Translations under genes and position numbers: made by a program
Shown here: positions 48,617-55,167 of the stretch, piece after piece
How positions within the stretch are numbered: the stretch's first letter is position 1
Layout of the letters: each line of letters begins with the position of its first letter
Sequence record: KY703222
Length of the DNA: 64,000 nucleotides
Direction: 5' to 3' (one strand)
From: Escherichia phage phiC120
The notes under the pieces: model-generated
Database searches by the model: none
Told to the model about the DNA's origin: nothing
The model's input: the letters and a program-made list of their open reading frames with translations, nothing else

Positions 48617-49165
48617 TTAACGAGCCCATTTGATGATTTCTGTAATCAAATCATTACGTTCGCTTGCATTAAATCCTATAACTTTGTTAGCACCATCATG
48701 ATTAAGTAATTGATACGTTTGGATTTTGTTATGAATTGCAAACTCTTCAAAATGTGAAATGACTGTATTAAAACCGAATGAAGACAAAGTAATAAGGTCG
48801 TCTTCAAAACTTTCAGTCATTTCGTTACGTGTTAAAATAATTGTGAACACGTCATGGTTTTGGCAAAGACGAACATAATCCTGTTCATAAACGTCAAGAA
48901 CCGAGTCAGCATCTTGTCGAATACGTCCATAAACCCAGTTACTAATATATCCACGGTCTAACAGATAAATCTTAGTAGGGTCTAAATAATTCAACATCGT
49001 TTCGAAACAACCAACTTCATTTCGAGACTTAACATCGAAACGTCCATCAACTGTTCGTTTAGGGAAATCAATCTTTACATATCTTTCACTAATTTCCATT
49101 ATGTCATTAATGAAAGTTGTTTTACCAGCATTATCCGGGCCATCTACTAAAATAATTTTAGCCAT
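48617..49165 (-). CDS. P-loop kinase, thymidylate-kinase-like fold (Walker A GPDNAGKTT, DR-like LLDRGYISNWVYG)
   Basis: 182 aa; GAGGAA RBS; sits where T4 has beta-glucosyltransferase. Confidence 0.55.
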   Translation of the reverse strand: MAKIILVDGPDNAGKTTFINDIMEISERYVKIDFPKRTVDGRFDVKSRNEVGCFETMLNYLDPTKIYLLDRGYISNWVYGRIRQDADSVLDVYEQDYVRLCQNHDVFTIILTRNEMTESFEDDLITLSSFGFNTVISHFEEFAIHNKIQTYQLLNHDGANKVIGFNASERNDLITEIIKWAR

Positions 49166-49166
49166 T

Positions 49167-50066
49167 TTATTCCTCGATTACGACATCTTCATATTTAGGT
49201 ATATTATACGGTGAAGAAATTAAAGCATTAAAGTAGATGAACTCACCAAGACCTGGATGAAATACTTCTTCAGGATTTTCGAAATATTGAATCTTCGGAC
49301 GTCCTTTAAGAATTTGATAGTACTCAGTTTTAGTTGGTTTAAAAATTCGAATCAACGCTTCTTCAGGATACTTATTTCTGTCGAAGCTATTATTTGGATC
49401 GGTTATATAAAGCGGTTGGCCTAATTGAATTGCACATTCAACCACTTGTTCAAAACGATAGCACGGGTCACTAATTCGAAATGGATGAAAAATACCATCT
49501 AGATGAATAGGAGCCAAATCACCTACAAGACGCTGCATGATGGAAGGACGTATAACTTTCTGCGTTACGATAATCTTATTACCATCTGCACCTGCGTTAA
49601 CCAGCACTTCTTTTTGACGTTCATTCAACACAGTAGTTTGAAGTGAACGATTAACCGACAACATGTCGGTTTTTAAGAATTCGTCAATATAAAAACGTGG
49701 TTTATTAGGGTCTGCAGTGATATTGAAATTGAATTCTACATCAAAAGCGCCGTCATATCCAGTGATATCTGTGATTAGAAAATCACAATCATAATAAGCA
49801 ATTAATGAATCAACCACAAATTCATTTTCAGACCAGAAATATTTACGGGTGTTATACGCGTTATCTTTATACCATAATGGAACAAACTTAAATTCTGGGA
49901 AAAGACGTTCACATTCTTTAATATCAGATGCATTACGTGGATATGTAATCACATCACCTGGATTAGCACGGTGCAAATGAAGTTGGAAGTTGCCATCCTT
50001 AAGGATAGCATACTGTCCAGTTTCATAAGACCGCATACTCAAGATTGGTACGCGGAAAATAGCCAT
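49167..50066 (-). CDS. Hypothetical protein (299 aa); candidate modification enzyme in the beta-gt position
   Basis: ORF track; TAATG coupling with gene 42; no recognisable motif. Confidence 0.45.
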   Translation of the reverse strand: MAIFRVPILSMRSYETGQYAILKDGNFQLHLHRANPGDVITYPRNASDIKECERLFPEFKFVPLWYKDNAYNTRKYFWSENEFVVDSLIAYYDCDFLITDITGYDGAFDVEFNFNITADPNKPRFYIDEFLKTDMLSVNRSLQTTVLNERQKEVLVNAGADGNKIIVTQKVIRPSIMQRLVGDLAPIHLDGIFHPFRISDPCYRFEQVVECAIQLGQPLYITDPNNSFDRNKYPEEALIRIFKPTKTEYYQILKGRPKIQYFENPEEVFHPGLGEFIYFNALISSPYNIPKYEDVVIEE

Positions 50067-50782
50067 TAGTCAAGGAATCCTTTAACATAATCAAAATCAC
50101 GTTCAAACACATGGGCACTTACCATGGTATGAGTATAATCACCAACTTCTACACCACATTCGTTAGCGATATAATGAAGTAATTTTCCTTGGAGATAAAA
50201 ATCCAACTGCATAACAACAGCACAGTTCTGGGAACGCATATGACAGTGGGTATAAAGCTTACCATCACGAATATAATAAGTCACTGAGTCAGTACATGGA
50301 TATTCAAGTGTTTCGTCTGAATCAAGCAAAGCCTGATCAGAACTTTCTAGAATTTGGAACACAACTCTTCGAGAGTTAGGCTTCTCTTTAAGTTCTTTTA
50401 GAAGAGCTGGTAATTGGGCCGCAATGCGAGGACCATAGAAAGTGTTGAAGTTCGCCGGCAAAACATCTGATTTTGGTTTAGAAATAAATTTAGCGACATT
50501 AGGATATGCCTTAAACGCTTCTTCTGCGTTGGTACCACCAGAAATCATAAACTTCCAGAAGTCTTCGGCATATTCATAAGAGATGCGATTAATACGTGGG
50601 TCGGTCATTTTGAATGATGATGGAGTGTCAACAACTACGGTCATAGACCCAATTTCATTACAACGTCCAATACGAGAATCAGTTACGAATTCTGGGTTTT
50701 CTAAAATTTCACGATTGACTGCTTTAAATGCGGTTTGAAAATCTGCGGCTTTGATATATTTCATTGTGTTATGTTTTCCCAT
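50066..50782 (-). CDS. 42: dCMP hydroxymethylase gp42 (thymidylate-synthase fold)
   Basis: 238 aa (T4 246); TS-like C-terminal pattern CTDSVTYYIRDGKLYTHCHMRSQN...HVFERDF; GAGGT RBS. Confidence 0.8.
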   Translation of the reverse strand: MGKHNTMKYIKAADFQTAFKAVNREILENPEFVTDSRIGRCNEIGSMTVVVDTPSSFKMTDPRINRISYEYAEDFWKFMISGGTNAEEAFKAYPNVAKFISKPKSDVLPANFNTFYGPRIAAQLPALLKELKEKPNSRRVVFQILESSDQALLDSDETLEYPCTDSVTYYIRDGKLYTHCHMRSQNCAVVMQLDFYLQGKLLHYIANECGVEVGDYTHTMVSAHVFERDFDYVKGFLD

Positions 50783-50824: not shown

Positions 50825-51064
50825 TTATTTGAATTTCTTGACAATGTTGATATAACGTAAAGCTTCAGCATCGATACTTCCAAGAACACTATGAAGAAAT
50901 GCATCAGCGTAGTATTCCAATTGAACAGGTTCTTTAATCACTTTAGCCGCTTTAGTTTCAAAAAGGCCCATCAGGGCCTTTTTAAGAATTTGTTCATTAG
51001 TGTTCAGTTTCATAGTCAAAATCTCTTCATTAAGTTGGTGGTTAAAAGTTTTTCTAGAAATCAT
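50825..51064 (-). CDS. Hypothetical protein (79 aa)
   Basis: ORF track; ATGA overlap with upstream gene. Confidence 0.4.
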   Translation of the reverse strand: MISRKTFNHQLNEEILTMKLNTNEQILKKALMGLFETKAAKVIKEPVQLEYYADAFLHSVLGSIDAEALRYINIVKKFK

Positions 51065-52221
51065 TCCGGGTATCTCAAAGCGTCATCAGAGTTAGTTATA
51101 TCAATAATAGATATAGAGTTTTCTGCTAACCCGTTTTTAGATAATTGACGTTTATAATATCTTTCACAATATGTACACGTCGTCCCGCAGATTTCATTAG
51201 CACAATCGAAATCTGGATGTCTGAACCACCTTTTTTCTAAAAAGCCATCTAACAAAGAGGTTTCAATATTTACTGTATGTGAAAACTCAGTCTCATTTTC
51301 AAGAGTGAAAATAGTCTCTAAAGGCTTCCACAGTTCTAACAAATTACCTTCAAACTTTTCAGAAGCGTATGCTTCAAGAACTTTCAAAATGTAGTCTGTG
51401 CTACCTGTACGTCCTGAAACTTTGAATTGAGTGATACCAATATCATTATAAAGTTTCAAATCTTGAGGACGAACAAAACGAGTTCTCAACCAGTTAAATG
51501 GGTCTGTATCACGAGCTTTAATACAGTGCTGCATAGGATATCCGTTTAAGGATTTAGCATCATCAGCGGTAACATCAGTACTATGGAAAATATAGCAAGA
51601 GTCACGATAGCTACAATGTGTTGTATACCCTTTACCAGCATTAGAACAGAACTCATTTACAAGAACTTCAAATATTATATTGTTCTTATTGCAAAACTCT
51701 GCTGCACGCTTCAGGAAAGAAACTGAACGGTTCTTATGAATTCCACAGCAGACCTTTTTGATATTATACTGGTCATGCAAGTATTTGATTTGAGTTACAG
51801 CATCGACATGTAGAATTGTTGAAACTTCAATCTCAATGTCTTTATTGACTTCACGAACAATTTCCATAACAACAGGGTTAGCGATAGTAATACGCCATAC
51901 GCCTATTGACCAAAGATACTGAACATAATCCTGAATAGCTTTCTTCTTCCACTCAACTAGTTCTCTTTTTGAACCAGGATTTATCGTGTTGAGTGTATAG
52001 TTAAAGCAAATACCTAATTCGTTACAACGTTTAACGTAATCTTCTAACATCTTTTTGTCAACGTCAGGAAGCCTAAAATCAGGTCTGGCTGCTACAAAAG
52101 CCATTTCTCTTGTAGAGCCATATACTTCGTTTATCAAGCTATTAGGATAAGTTTTATTGAGCTCTACGATTTTATCGAGAAGAGCTAAATCAAAATTCGT
52201 TCCGATTTTAAAAGTATTCAT
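51061..52221 (-). CDS. Cys-rich hypothetical protein (386 aa from ATG 52221; ORF-track start 52236 is GTG); candidate enzyme of the modification cassette
   Basis: C-terminal CANEICGTTCTYC (C-x4-C-x3-C-x2-C) plus other conserved Cys; no confident fold assignment. Confidence 0.45.
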   Translation of the reverse strand: MNTFKIGTNFDLALLDKIVELNKTYPNSLINEVYGSTREMAFVAARPDFRLPDVDKKMLEDYVKRCNELGICFNYTLNTINPGSKRELVEWKKKAIQDYVQYLWSIGVWRITIANPVVMEIVREVNKDIEIEVSTILHVDAVTQIKYLHDQYNIKKVCCGIHKNRSVSFLKRAAEFCNKNNIIFEVLVNEFCSNAGKGYTTHCSYRDSCYIFHSTDVTADDAKSLNGYPMQHCIKARDTDPFNWLRTRFVRPQDLKLYNDIGITQFKVSGRTGSTDYILKVLEAYASEKFEGNLLELWKPLETIFTLENETEFSHTVNIETSLLDGFLEKRWFRHPDFDCANEICGTTCTYCERYYKRQLSKNGLAENSISIIDITNSDDALRYPE

Positions 52222-52278: not shown

Positions 52279-52665
52279 TTATAGATTCGGTTTATATGAT
52301 TTAAATGTTTCGAATTCGCCTTTATTCATAAGAGCTTTGAATTCGTCAGGACGCATAGCTTTGTCGTCGATAATCCAATCATATACTGGTTTATGTGTTA
52401 GCAAATTATGGTACTTCAAGCCAATGTTTGCCAAGTTCTGAATCAGACTTGGGAGAATGTCAATTGCTATACGACCAGGACCTACTGACTTCATACCGCG
52501 AGCAGTGTAAAGCGTTATGGTATGCCCTGCATCATACAGGGCATTAATGGCAGTCACCATTTCGACGTCCGGTTTGAAGTTCACGTAATCACGATTGTTA
52601 TTCCACTCTGTTATACAATCATCGACGTCAAAACAAAGATTAAGCATGTTTTCTACACGGTGCAT
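52279..52665 (-). CDS. HAD-superfamily phosphatase-like protein (about 128 aa)
   Basis: N-terminal motif I FDVDDCIT (DxDx[T/V]); start uncertain (ATG 52665 overlaps upstream stop as TAATG; alternative ATG 52680). Confidence 0.5.
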   Translation of the reverse strand: MHRVENMLNLCFDVDDCITEWNNNRDYVNFKPDVEMVTAINALYDAGHTITLYTARGMKSVGPGRIAIDILPSLIQNLANIGLKYHNLLTHKPVYDWIIDDKAMRPDEFKALMNKGEFETFKSYKPNL

Positions 52666-54350
52666 TAGATTCGTTCCCATTGATGAGTGATATCGCCACC
52701 GATTGGACGATAGGAAACACCAGTTTCTTTATCAGTTAGTACCCATTTACCAGGATTTTTTGTAATCAGAGTAGCCGTTACAGGTTCTGCTACGTCATAA
52801 CTAATAGAGCCATCTTGAAGTACACGGCCCATGTTACGTAATTGCTTAGTCAGAAGTTCCATACCTTTATAATATGCGGCCACCGCTTTAAGTGGATTAT
52901 TCTTGAAATAACCACCTAATGCAATCCAGATAATTGCCACTGCCAAATGATGATACTCGTTAAACGAACTCATCTTTCCATATTTGTAAACTAATGGATT
53001 GATGTTAATAGTCACATTACAAGTTGTTTCATCAATAGTAAACTGGCCCCAGGTCGGATTAGCGTTGAATTCATCATAACCTGAAACAGCATAAAGCACT
53101 TTAGCTTCATCATACAATTTTGGCCCGTAAATCTTGGTTTCGCCAAAATATCCACGAGGGTCGATAAACTTGACTTCGCCGTTATCAGTAATCATAGTAT
53201 TACTGAAGTTCGGGTCACCGTGAATAACAGAGTACTGTCCCTGAGAACGGTTATGATAACGAATAAGATGTTCTAAAGCTTGTTTCAACATTGGCTTCAG
53301 ACGTCCAATCTTAGTGTAGTTCACGTGTGTGATTTTACCAAATGAATCAATCAATGGCTGAATGCTTTCACAACGATCAATAACTTTCGTATAGAACTCT
53401 TTAGTGAAATCACGACGAACAGTTTCAGGACTTACAAAATAAGTGTCTGTACTGAATTTCAGTGCATCTAAAATTGCATCAACAATTTGTGGACGAGCAA
53501 GACTTGATTTGGATTTAATATATTCAAATGCCGGCTTACCTTTAATACGTTCCATTTCAAAATTATTTTCATTTACCGAAACTAACTGAGGAACCGAATC
53601 TGATTTCACTTTCAAATACCATGAAATCTCATCTTTTTGAAGAGCTCGACCTTGTTCGGTTAACGCGAATTTAGTTACAGTTTCTTCGCCAATTTCAACT
53701 GCATTAAAACTACGATTAAGTTCACGAACTTCATGAGCTTTTTCAAGTTTAGGCATATCACCTAAATCAATTAGATTCATAAGCTCTGATTTATTGAATG
53801 CGCTGCTGTAAAGGAATTCTACGAAATCACGTCCTTTGCAGTATTCATGAATTTCCTCATCAGTAGAACCCATATAGAATTCCCAGTCTTTGAACTGATA
53901 AATTCCTACAACATTACCGCCTGTTGCACCTACATTAGTGATATTTTCACCGTCGAAATTATATCGACATTCGTCACCCTTAACATAGATTGCGTTAACA
54001 TTCCAAGACCATGAACCAAAATCAGGAATAATATCGCACCAGTTAACAACTACGTTATGGCCGTCTAAATCTTTATGTAATTTAGCAAGAGCATAAGCAG
54101 AACCATACGCTTCATCAACTGTACGAATAGTCACATTGAACCCTTCTTGCTCACAATAAGCTCGAACAGTTTCAGCAAATTTTGAATGAACTACTACAAT
54201 AATTTCATCTGCGCCAAGGTCAGAATAAATTGTATACAAATTGCTCAGAATAGTGTCTTGTTTATAGTTAACAAGCACCTTAGGAATATGGTGAGTAATT
54301 GGATATAAACGAGTTGCCAATCCGGCACCAAGAATAACAGCTTTTTTCAT
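52665..54350 (-). CDS. Bifunctional sugar-1-phosphate nucleotidyltransferase (N-terminal) / APH-fold anomeric sugar kinase (C-terminal)
   Basis: 561 aa; N-terminal MKKAVILGAGLATRLYPIT (G-x-G-T-R-L-x-P-x-T as in RmlA-type NTP transferases); C-terminal HGDPNFSN...KFIDPRG kinase catalytic/DFG-like loops; GAGGA RBS. Confidence 0.7.
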   Translation of the reverse strand: MKKAVILGAGLATRLYPITHHIPKVLVNYKQDTILSNLYTIYSDLGADEIIVVVHSKFAETVRAYCEQEGFNVTIRTVDEAYGSAYALAKLHKDLDGHNVVVNWCDIIPDFGSWSWNVNAIYVKGDECRYNFDGENITNVGATGGNVVGIYQFKDWEFYMGSTDEEIHEYCKGRDFVEFLYSSAFNKSELMNLIDLGDMPKLEKAHEVRELNRSFNAVEIGEETVTKFALTEQGRALQKDEISWYLKVKSDSVPQLVSVNENNFEMERIKGKPAFEYIKSKSSLARPQIVDAILDALKFSTDTYFVSPETVRRDFTKEFYTKVIDRCESIQPLIDSFGKITHVNYTKIGRLKPMLKQALEHLIRYHNRSQGQYSVIHGDPNFSNTMITDNGEVKFIDPRGYFGETKIYGPKLYDEAKVLYAVSGYDEFNANPTWGQFTIDETTCNVTININPLVYKYGKMSSFNEYHHLAVAIIWIALGGYFKNNPLKAVAAYYKGMELLTKQLRNMGRVLQDGSISYDVAEPVTATLITKNPGKWVLTDKETGVSYRPIGGDITHQWERI

Positions 54351-54391: not shown

Positions 54392-54535
54392 CTAGTTAAA
54401 GCATTCATACTTTGCCTGTAGACCAATCATAATCCATCCAATTACAAGTGTTGGAATCATTACTGGAGCCGTTAAGCTCCAGTAGATAGTCATGACAAGC
54501 ATCAATAGTAAAAGTCCTATTGTTATTGCTTTCAT
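54392..54535 (-). CDS. Small membrane peptide (47 aa)
   Basis: Own translation MKAITIGLLLLMLVMTIYWSLTAPVMIPTLVIGWIMIGLQAKYECFN; ATGA overlap with the SIS gene. Confidence 0.35.
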   Translation of the reverse strand: MKAITIGLLLLMLVMTIYWSLTAPVMIPTLVIGWIMIGLQAKYECFN

Positions 54536-55167
54536 TGTTCGCCTCGTAACATGGCACCTAGTGCACCGCCAGGGTGGAACTTAAGGAAGTCATTAGAGGT
54601 AAATCCACGTTCAGACGAAAGGTTGATAGCAAACGTATCGATAAGCGCTAACAACAATGTAGTGGACATAGTCGGAGCTAAAGAGTTCTCGTCAACTTCT
54701 ACCGCGATACCGGTACAGAACGTATAATCAAAAAGAGCTTCGTATTCTTGTGGAATGTCAGGGTTACAATGTAACAGAATCTGTTTAACCTGAGGACGAA
54801 TCATACGAAGATGTTTAGCAACACCTATCATTTCTTCAGTCTTACCAGAACGACTGATGTGAACTAATACATCATTAGGTGCAATAAATCCTGCATCCCC
54901 ATGAGAATAATGCCCAGTGTTCAAATACATGCTAGGAATACCTAGTGAAGCAAAAGTCTCGGAAGCTTTAGTTGCGATATTAGCATTCTTACCAACACCT
55001 GTAATAATTACACGACTTTCATAATTACTCAGTCCAGGGCGGCGAAGAGTTTCAAGAATAGCATTATATCGGGCAGGGTTTTGACTAATTACTTTGGCCA
55101 TAGCGGCCAAAGAAGAAGCTTGTTTTATGATTGCGTCAATAGCGATAGTAATAGGAGTAGTTTTCAT
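54532..55167 (-). CDS. D-arabinose-5-phosphate isomerase, SIS domain only (KdsD/GutQ-like)
   Basis: 211 aa; aligns by eye to E. coli KdsD SIS domain (GVGK...IA.K...TFAS.G.PS......HGD.G...P.DV...ISRSG...E...) and ends in the KdsD hallmark FHPGGALG. Confidence 0.8.
   Translation of the reverse strand: MKTTPITIAIDAIIKQASSLAAMAKVISQNPARYNAILETLRRPGLSNYESRVIITGVGKNANIATKASETFASLGIPSMYLNTGHYSHGDAGFIAPNDVLVHISRSGKTEEMIGVAKHLRMIRPQVKQILLHCNPDIPQEYEALFDYTFCTGIAVEVDENSLAPTMSTTLLLALIDTFAINLSSERGFTSNDFLKFHPGGALGAMLRGEQ

Follow-up and report, generated by a model that had tools for sequence, protein, structure and literature searches.

A phage-borne U32-family protein of Escherichia phage phiC120 as a candidate prephenate-dependent hydroxylase for 5-hydroxycytosine DNA

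All U32-family proteins with an assigned function take part in O2-independent hydroxylations of a pyrimidine C5 or an aromatic ring, which depend on prephenate and on iron-sulfur (Fe-S) clusters (PMC5727448, PMC6599085, PMC10990095). RlhA generates ho5C2501, TrhP generates ho5U34, and UbiU/V act on ubiquinone (PMC5727448, PMC6599085, PMC10990095). Genetic and isotopic work established prephenate as the oxygen donor or co-substrate of these reactions (PMC10990095, PMC5727448, PMC6599085), and four Fe-S ligands are described for UbiU/V. Here, we analyze a U32-family protein of 386 amino acids (aa) encoded by Escherichia phage phiC120 (sequence record KY703222) within a stretch of 64,000 nucleotides, hereafter the window. 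We consider it probable that this phage-specific, predicted Fe-S enzyme is an O2-independent, prephenate-dependent hydroxylase supplying phage DNA with 5-hydroxycytosine, most likely by acting on deoxycytidine monophosphate (dCMP).

In phage RB69 and in Acinetobacter phage DLP3, all cytosines are replaced by mono- or poly-arabinosylated 5-hydroxycytosine (5hoC) and not by 5-hydroxymethylcytosine (hmC; PMC13326640). The ThyA homolog RB69 gp48 makes 5-hydroxy-dCMP and binds flavin mononucleotide (FMN), and 18O2 labelling traced the oxygen to O2 (PMC13326640). UDP-arabinofuranose is supplied by a SIS isomerase, an AfhE-like kinase/uridylyltransferase and a HAD phosphatase, while the glycosyltransferases act on DNA (PMC13326640). 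This is the only characterized route to RB69-type 5-hydroxycytosine, and it needs O2. The RB69 homolog of the U32 protein, RB69p050, is mentioned solely as a Table 1 entry, “sugar or heterocycle reductase,” with a match to PDB entry 5D88 and no discussion (PMC13326640). Among the accessible literature, no paper ties U32 proteins or chorismate mutase to phage 5hoC, though an earlier mention in papers that were not reached is possible.

Two cellular modifications offer a precedent for one product reached by either an O2-dependent or a prephenate-dependent U32 route: tRNA ho5U34 by TrhO or TrhP, and ubiquinone by UbiI/H/F or UbiU-UbiV. Their O2-dependent partners are rhodanese-type enzymes or flavin monooxygenases, and organisms of mixed habitats have both routes. 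Similarly, the U32 protein would correspond, under anoxia, to the FMN- and O2-dependent ThyA-like 5-hydroxy-dCMP synthase (RB69 gp48, DLP3 gp80 and its HY126 equivalent) encoded two open reading frames (ORFs) away. The same product and pathway are proposed for both, whereas fold and cofactor are unrelated and the ThyA-like enzyme takes its oxygen from O2. Since the known hydroxylase of the cassette requires O2 (PMC13326640), a second one would be needed under anoxic conditions. The phage pathway differs from the cellular pairs, which act on tRNA or lipid, in being viral, in having a ThyA-fold flavoenzyme as the O2-dependent partner and in a demand that is stoichiometric with every genomic cytosine.

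Family, fold and cysteine ligands of the U32 protein

The gene extends on the minus strand from an ATG at 52221 to a TGA at 51061-51063, confirming the cysteine-rich ORF of 386 aa described in the initial annotation of the window. A GTG five codons upstream would yield a 391-aa protein; the ATG is favored because the N-termini of homologs (MNTFK...) agree with it. The initial annotation regarded the fold as unknown and saw no clear U32 match. This was correct for the literal spacing of the signature but not for the family: Pfam PF01136 (Peptidase_U32) matches residues 99-291 with 42.2 bits (gathering cut-off 22.4; E 7.5e-11), and almost all homologs carry a precomputed PF01136 annotation. Remote homology and structure prediction, which had been proposed there, led to the U32 family and a TIM barrel. 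The AlphaFold model (pLDDT 89, pTM 0.89) exhibits the U32 TIM-barrel fold of 5D88, the only solved member of the family. It was fold comparison alone that found this structure, as PDB sequence searches with the single protein and with the family profile returned no U32 structure. 5D88 represents Mk0906 of Methanopyrus kandleri, which is only 11-14% identical to the phage protein and lacks the region of the C-terminal cysteine cluster.

The canonical signature of Escherichia coli RlhA, TrhP and UbiU reads E-x-F-x5-C-x6-C-x15/16-C-x3-[C/R]. In the phage protein, its residues are present at changed spacing (E190-F-C192-x10-C203-x5-C209-x23-C233-x3-R237, with the motif FCSNAGKGYTTHCSYRDSCYIF at residues 191-212), and this altered spacing explains why U32 membership had escaped recognition. 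When the four E. coli paralogs were aligned with it by hhalign, one good match emerged, RlhA (YdcP; E 1.3e-5, 193 columns), in which the invariant E190, C203 and C209 align with RlhA E161, C169 and C176. These three RlhA residues are required for ho5C2501 formation as judged by mutagenesis, and further essential cysteines lie near the RlhA C-terminus (PMC5727448). Consequently, residues essential in prephenate-dependent U32 hydroxylases are conserved in the phage protein, whose CX4CX3CX2C tail recalls the C-terminal cysteines of RlhA; a “CYIxH” stretch is common to both. Single-sequence profiles of TrhP, UbiU and UbiV were uninformative in the same comparison.

RlhA, the 23S rRNA 5-hydroxycytidine-2501 synthase, shares the Pfam family and transfers a hydroxyl group onto cytosine C5 in dependence on prephenate and Fe-S, which is the chemistry proposed for the phage protein. 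The initial annotation would have been refuted by confident homology to a protein with no link to carbohydrate or nucleotide chemistry; the closest characterized relative instead hydroxylates C5 of an rRNA cytidine. RlhA has 653 aa, including a DUF3656 domain, and a ribosome precursor as its substrate, whereas the phage protein has one domain plus the cysteine tail and is encoded in a context of deoxynucleotide and DNA metabolism. In addition, the fourth canonical cysteine of RlhA, C196, corresponds to R237.

Cysteines are located at positions 66, 72, 158, 159, 177, 192, 203, 209, 233, 340, 345, 349 and 352, a content far above chance. That it is not fortuitous follows from conservation in 24 aligned homologs and in 120 diverse relatives that were sampled by searching 1.84 billion representatives. 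Ten cysteines are invariant among the homologs, with identities as low as 46%, including the cluster C340-x4-C345-x3-C349-x2-C352 that had been pointed out from the sequence alone. Across the 120 relatives, C192 is retained in 99%, C203 and C233 in 100%, and the four C-terminal positions in 94-96%, while residue 209 (51595-51597) is Cys in 62% and His in 38%; this Cys/His swap at a ligand position may tune the cluster. The eight metal-ligand positions thus make up two four-ligand sets kept across ~120 relatives, and their conservation suggests a division into two clusters. Of the earlier proposal of a metal-dependent sugar-modifying enzyme or transferase, the metal part (as Fe-S) is very probably right; its sugar and transferase part is considered below.

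A radical SAM identity was rejected, as the protein exhibits no CxxxCxxC motif, in agreement with the initial annotation and with the cysteine positions, no Radical_SAM Pfam match and the wrong context. The context likewise led to rejection of a peptidase.

No NCBIfam equivalog model matched the protein, the best score being 18.5 bits for UbiU (cut-off 440); TrhP matches were found in three homologs alone, with at most 18.1 bits (cut-off 534). The accessory domains DUF3656 and U32 C-terminal are absent. A subfamily profile retrieved 1,646 proteins among the 1.84 billion, 436 of them with E <1e-30. On these sequence comparisons, the protein belongs to a separate, essentially phage-borne subfamily outside all characterized ones.

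Genomic context, prephenate supply and distribution

Gene neighborhoods were compared across 63 distinct U32 loci from annotated phage records, IMG/VR viral contigs, GTDB genomes and metagenome contigs, whose ORFs were called, clustered and scored with our own hidden Markov models (HMMs), Pfam and NCBIfam. In 17 of the 19 T4-like loci, the U32 gene adjoins a gene for chorismate mutase, the enzyme whose product is prephenate. This small ORF is a type II chorismate mutase, with Pfam CM_2 matches above the gathering score (E 2.4e-10 and 1.7e-11). It is located directly downstream of the U32 gene in Entb_45 and LC53; the Entb_45 copy overlaps its two neighbors at the start and stop codons. The pair moves as a unit despite changed gene order, as in Shewanella phage Thanatos-1 (ThyA-like, glycosyltransferase, kinase, U32, chorismate mutase). 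A tblastn search identified the T4-like chorismate mutase in 51 phage records, all of them T4-like phages of Enterobacterales or Shewanella.

Outside the T4-like phages, one group of contigs (U32 46-50% identical) carries a chorismate mutase ORF directly after U32. Another encodes a 340-351-aa fusion of DAHP synthase and chorismate mutase one gene off U32 (DAHP_synth_1 2.5e-36, CM_2 7.9e-18); its NCBIfam scores are greatly higher for DAHP synthase than for KDO8P synthase, and precomputed annotation independently confirms the fusion. A DAHP synthase without chorismate mutase domain follows U32 in one locus. Altogether, chorismate mutase or DAHP synthase occurs in 16 of the 44 non-T4-like loci and in 33 of all 63, compared with none of 36 loci positive for the ThyA-like gene and negative for U32 (Fisher p 5e-9, uncorrected for phylogeny). 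The stoichiometric demand for prephenate may explain why phages encode these enzymes, and on this comparative evidence base hydroxylation by the phage U32 protein, with prephenate as oxygen donor, is the reaction pointed to.

The fusions combine a type I-beta DAHP synthase with a C-terminal CM_2 domain and adjoin U32 in loci L035 (6411-7433), L037 (9-971), L038 (6321-7376), L039 (6332-7387), L064 (5511-6566) and L059. They appear to be a viral auxiliary metabolic gene of the shikimate pathway.

A ThyA-like gene is present close to U32 in all 19 T4-like loci and in none of the 44 non-T4-like loci within 8-10 kb. The former count would fit a partnership in which the U32 protein transfers electrons via Fe-S to the ThyA-like flavoenzyme or otherwise assists it, for example by supplying reduced flavin: the U32 protein has two putative Fe-S sites, and a flavoenzyme would need a reductant. 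Such a partnership is nevertheless very unlikely in view of the 44 loci, of the linkage to chorismate mutase, which it leaves unaccounted for, and of the ThyA-like enzyme functioning in E. coli without the U32 protein (PMC13326640).

Two independent scans of IMG/VR, one seeded with U32 and one with ThyA, gave contig lists that overlap in Straboviridae only. The non-T4-like U32 loci encode a glycosyltransferase of the same family as the DNA arabinosyltransferase 1 homolog of the window in 28 of 44 cases, an AfhE-like protein in 20 and a Tmk-like kinase in nine. A minimal module of Tmk-like kinase, glycosyltransferase and U32 beside a replicative polymerase recurs, and two loci (L001, L050) have a dCMP deaminase gene as the immediate upstream neighbor of U32.

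Among annotated phage records, U32 homologs were detected in 220, and every named organism infects Enterobacterales or Shewanella. These hosts are facultative anaerobes. The ThyA-like gene was found in 372 records. Acinetobacter phages account for 57 of these and Rhizobium phages for 20, all of them absent from the U32 hits; phages of strict aerobes thus have the ThyA-like gene only, the sole hydroxylase candidate there. Acinetobacter phage Konradin has HAD and ThyA-like genes that abut at the very point where enterobacterial phages carry U32 and chorismate mutase. At the other end of the range, a survey of one genome each for 185,579 species recovered the subfamily in six loci only, all on contigs of metagenome-assembled genomes (MAGs) from predominantly strictly anaerobic gut lineages (Erysipelotrichales, Bacillota, Oscillospiraceae, Gastranaerophilaceae, Romboutsia). 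Five of the six exhibit a glycosyltransferase-linked U32 module, four chorismate mutase or DAHP synthase, and none a ThyA-like gene. The distributions of the U32 and ThyA-like genes are thus complementary, as is typical of analogous enzymes.

The same comparison bears on the proposal that the U32 protein modifies a sugar or sugar nucleotide, for instance by tailoring the pentose before transfer. Genes for the SIS isomerase, the AfhE-like protein and the HAD phosphatase co-occur with U32 in many loci, and the published label of RB69p050 names a sugar among the possible substrates (Table 1, PMC13326640). However, Acinetobacter phages possess the full set of sugar-nucleotide and transferase genes without U32, and DLP3 makes the same poly-arabinosylated 5hoC (PMC13326640), so the sugar pathway does not need U32. 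AfhE and AfhF already account for UDP-arabinofuranose synthesis, and six loci (L026, L030, L031, L036, L040, L051) contain kinase, glycosyltransferase and U32 only, without sugar-nucleotide genes. Furthermore, sugar chemistry offers no reason for the linkage to chorismate mutase and DAHP synthase, and sugars are the substrate of no known U32 protein. A sugar substrate is therefore quite unlikely, and the earlier reading of an unknown-fold sugar enzyme or transferase is largely replaced. The view that this gene is the least explained member of a DNA-modification cassette is supported, while the glycosylated hmC that had been envisaged as the cassette's product gives way to arabinosyl-5-hydroxycytosine, the constituent of RB69-type DNA (PMC13326640).

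Extremely unlikely, finally, is a role apart from DNA modification, be it hydroxylation of host tRNA or rRNA to tune translation or true peptidase activity. U32 relatives do hydroxylate rRNA and tRNA, and database labels read “peptidase” or “collagenase.” Yet in very different phages the gene lies strictly within modules of DNA modification and nucleotide metabolism, RNA-binding domains are lacking, and E. coli possesses RlhA and TrhP of its own. The family bears its peptidase label for historical reasons, and the work on RlhA, TrhP and UbiUV called that label into question (PMC5727448).

Proposed reaction and its substrate

The reaction proposed for the U32 protein is modelled, by analogy, on UbiU/V (PMC10990095). 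The pyrimidine ring would lose two electrons, carried via the Fe-S site or sites C192/C203/C209/C233 and C340/C345/C349/C352, while prephenate would decarboxylate and aromatize and hydroxide would be delivered to C5. The products would be 5-hydroxy-dCMP, phenylpyruvate and CO2. Phage kinases would then form the triphosphate, the polymerase would incorporate it and the transferases would arabinosylate the resulting DNA. Prephenate would come from host PheA/TyrA in this phage and from the phage chorismate mutase in most relatives. Fe-S content, prephenate use, a dCMP rather than a DNA substrate and O2 independence are thus predicted properties of the phage protein.

The substrate of such a prephenate-dependent hydroxylase could alternatively be the cytosines of replicated DNA, just as RlhA acts on rRNA. 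All characterized U32 enzymes of nucleic acids take polymers, and DNA is what the pathway's glycosyltransferases modify (PMC13326640). We regard this as unlikely. The phage protein scores far below every equivalog model and lacks the nucleic acid-binding extensions of RlhA and TrhP, and its gene recurs beside those for Tmk-like kinases, dCMP deaminase, the nucleotidase NT5C and deoxynucleoside kinase (dNK), which argues for dCMP. Moreover, T4-type phages are known to replace all cytosines at the nucleotide level (PMC13326640).

Several points weigh against hydroxylation of dCMP by the U32 protein. The protein is known from its sequence, predicted fold and gene context alone, and its placement next to RlhA among the E. 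coli paralogs is weak, as it comes from single-sequence profiles. To our knowledge, the U32 substrates described so far are RNA polymers or a lipid, with no free nucleotide among them. RlhA is active in aerated cultures as well, and family membership does not imply that an enzyme is restricted to anaerobic conditions. The loci compared are not phylogenetically independent and the statistics carry no correction for phylogeny, while absence of the ThyA-like gene was checked within ~8-10 kb and by pattern-seeded scans. Dhakaviruses of E. coli have the ThyA-like gene without U32, and U32 is thus not obligatory for coliphages. The phage chorismate mutase HMM matched nothing within the 64-kb window, no DAHP synthase was found there either, and this phage would consequently rely on host PheA and TyrA. 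Lastly, in vitro reconstitution has been achieved for no U32 hydroxylase (PMC10990095).

Gene order of the cassette, variant loci and implications

The window derives from an RB69-like Mosigvirus. Its U32 protein shares 99.5% identity with the homolog in RB69 and 99.7% with the one in HY126, and the 6.6-kb cassette (Table 1) shares 98.8% with Escherichia phage phiE142 and ~98% with many further Mosigvirus genomes.

Table 1. Genes of the modification cassette in the phiC120 window and predicted sites within the U32 protein
Feature	Position	Strand	Basis or remark
Thymidylate-kinase-like nucleotide kinase (RB69 gp45 type)	48617..49165	minus	phrog_761
DNA arabinosyltransferase 1 homolog (RB69 gp46:47 type)	49167..50066	minus	phrog_3891; Table 1 of PMC13326640
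ThyA-homolog 5-hydroxy-dCMP synthase (RB69 gp48 type), FMN- and O2-dependent	50066..50782	minus	Pfam Thymidylat_synt; RB69/DLP3 biochemistry, PMC13326640
79-aa ORF (RB69ORF049c type)	50825..51064	minus	phrog_8601; ATG overlaps U32 stop (ATGA)
U32-family protein gene (RB69 gp50 / RB69p050 homolog), 386 aa	51061..52221	minus	predicted Fe-S, prephenate-dependent pyrimidine C5 hydroxylase
C-terminal cluster C340-x4-C345-x3-C349-x2-C352	51166..51204	minus	predicted second metal or Fe-S site
U32 core motif E190-F-C192-x10-C203-x5-C209-x23-C233-x3-R237, residues 190-237	51511..51654	minus	predicted first metal-cluster site
HAD-type phosphatase (AfhF / RB69 gp51 type), UDP-arabinofuranose synthesis	52279..52680	minus	PMC13326640
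Bifunctional sugar kinase/nucleotidyltransferase (AfhE / RB69 gp52:53 type)	52665..54350	minus	Pfam NTP_transferase and kinase-like matches
SIS-domain arabinose-5-phosphate isomerase (RB69 gp55 type)	54532..55167	minus	Pfam SIS

The AfhE-like gene is a single intact ORF of 561 aa at 52665-54350 on the minus strand, whereas the RB69 reference record lists ORF052 and ORF053, a split ascribed to sequencing error (PMC13326640). Ten large ORFs of the window were scanned for nrdD as a second aerobic/anaerobic pair; topoisomerase subunits, Dda and MotB were among them and no NrdD was found.

The 79-aa ORF occupies the slot that is held by chorismate mutase in most related phages. A diverged chorismate mutase was rejected, as there was no CM_2 Pfam match at E 10 and the hhalign probability against phage chorismate mutases was 0.2%. 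The ORF is conserved in five T4-like lineages with the motif YYxDAFxHSxxGxIxAExxRHIN. In Yersinia TG1-type phages, this type of ORF is located between U32 and chorismate mutase, and the chorismate mutase of LC53 exhibits an N-terminal extension resembling the N-terminus of the 79-aa ORF. Its product could be an accessory protein of the U32 protein.

Several loci deviate from this arrangement. In L008 (3854-4492), in L116 (1551-2189) and, as c32, in L012, L017, L019 and L020, the HAD phosphatase and U32 genes are separated by an inserted homing-endonuclease-like gene of 212 aa; Winklervirus phages LC53 and Vettismorki are among the carriers. In Dhakaviruses, such as Escherichia phage dhaeg (L062, 5468-6004), a P-loop kinase-like ORF of 178 aa occupies the slot of U32 in Mosigvirus, and the SIS isomerase is lacking. 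As E. coli phages with the O2-dependent hydroxylase alone, Dhakaviruses represent a natural control for the anaerobic hypothesis.

In L001 (944-11086 of a 466-kb, jumbo-phage-like JGI contig), the dCMP deaminase stop overlaps the U32 start, and a MazG-like protein, a radical-SAM/SPASM protein, a glycosyltransferase-like protein of 402 aa, Tmk, UDG and Pol III alpha are encoded nearby. This arrangement suggests that some family members may act after the deaminase, possibly making 5-hydroxy-dUMP. A different, deoxynucleoside-centered module is present in L002 (10001-17428; also L003 and L057) of a Bacillota MAG, where the U32 block includes NT5C, a PnuC-like transporter, deoxynucleoside kinase, an AlaX-like protein, a radical-SAM/SPASM enzyme, another U32 paralog of very remote similarity (22% identity) and nucleoside 2-deoxyribosyltransferase, with a phage GP88 gene adjoining.

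Joining these lines, the phage-borne U32 subfamily may comprise O2-independent, prephenate-consuming C5-hydroxylases of dCMP or another pyrimidine deoxynucleoside monophosphate. T4-like phages of facultative anaerobes would pair this enzyme with the ThyA-fold enzyme, a large set of uncultured phages of strict anaerobes would use it as their sole route to glycosylated 5-hydroxypyrimidine DNA, and the genes for chorismate mutase and DAHP synthase would supply the prephenate that is consumed stoichiometrically. A small soluble substrate would be a first among U32 enzymes. We hold this combined interpretation to be evenly poised between right and wrong. The subfamily, the substrate class and the viral setting with dedicated prephenate-supply genes are, in our estimation, probably new.

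The main habitat of RB69-type phages is the anoxic gut. If true, the proposal accounts for a modification made there without O2, predicts glycosylated 5-hydroxypyrimidine DNA in many uncultured phages of strict anaerobes and provides a rationale for shikimate-pathway genes in phages. It would also offer a U32 enzyme that is small, soluble and single-domain and takes a nucleotide as substrate, tractable for the study of prephenate-dependent hydroxylation and a natural system for its in vitro reconstitution. The DNA modification state, and hence sensitivity to restriction and CRISPR, may then vary with oxygen and with host aromatic amino-acid metabolism, which bears on phage therapy and engineering.

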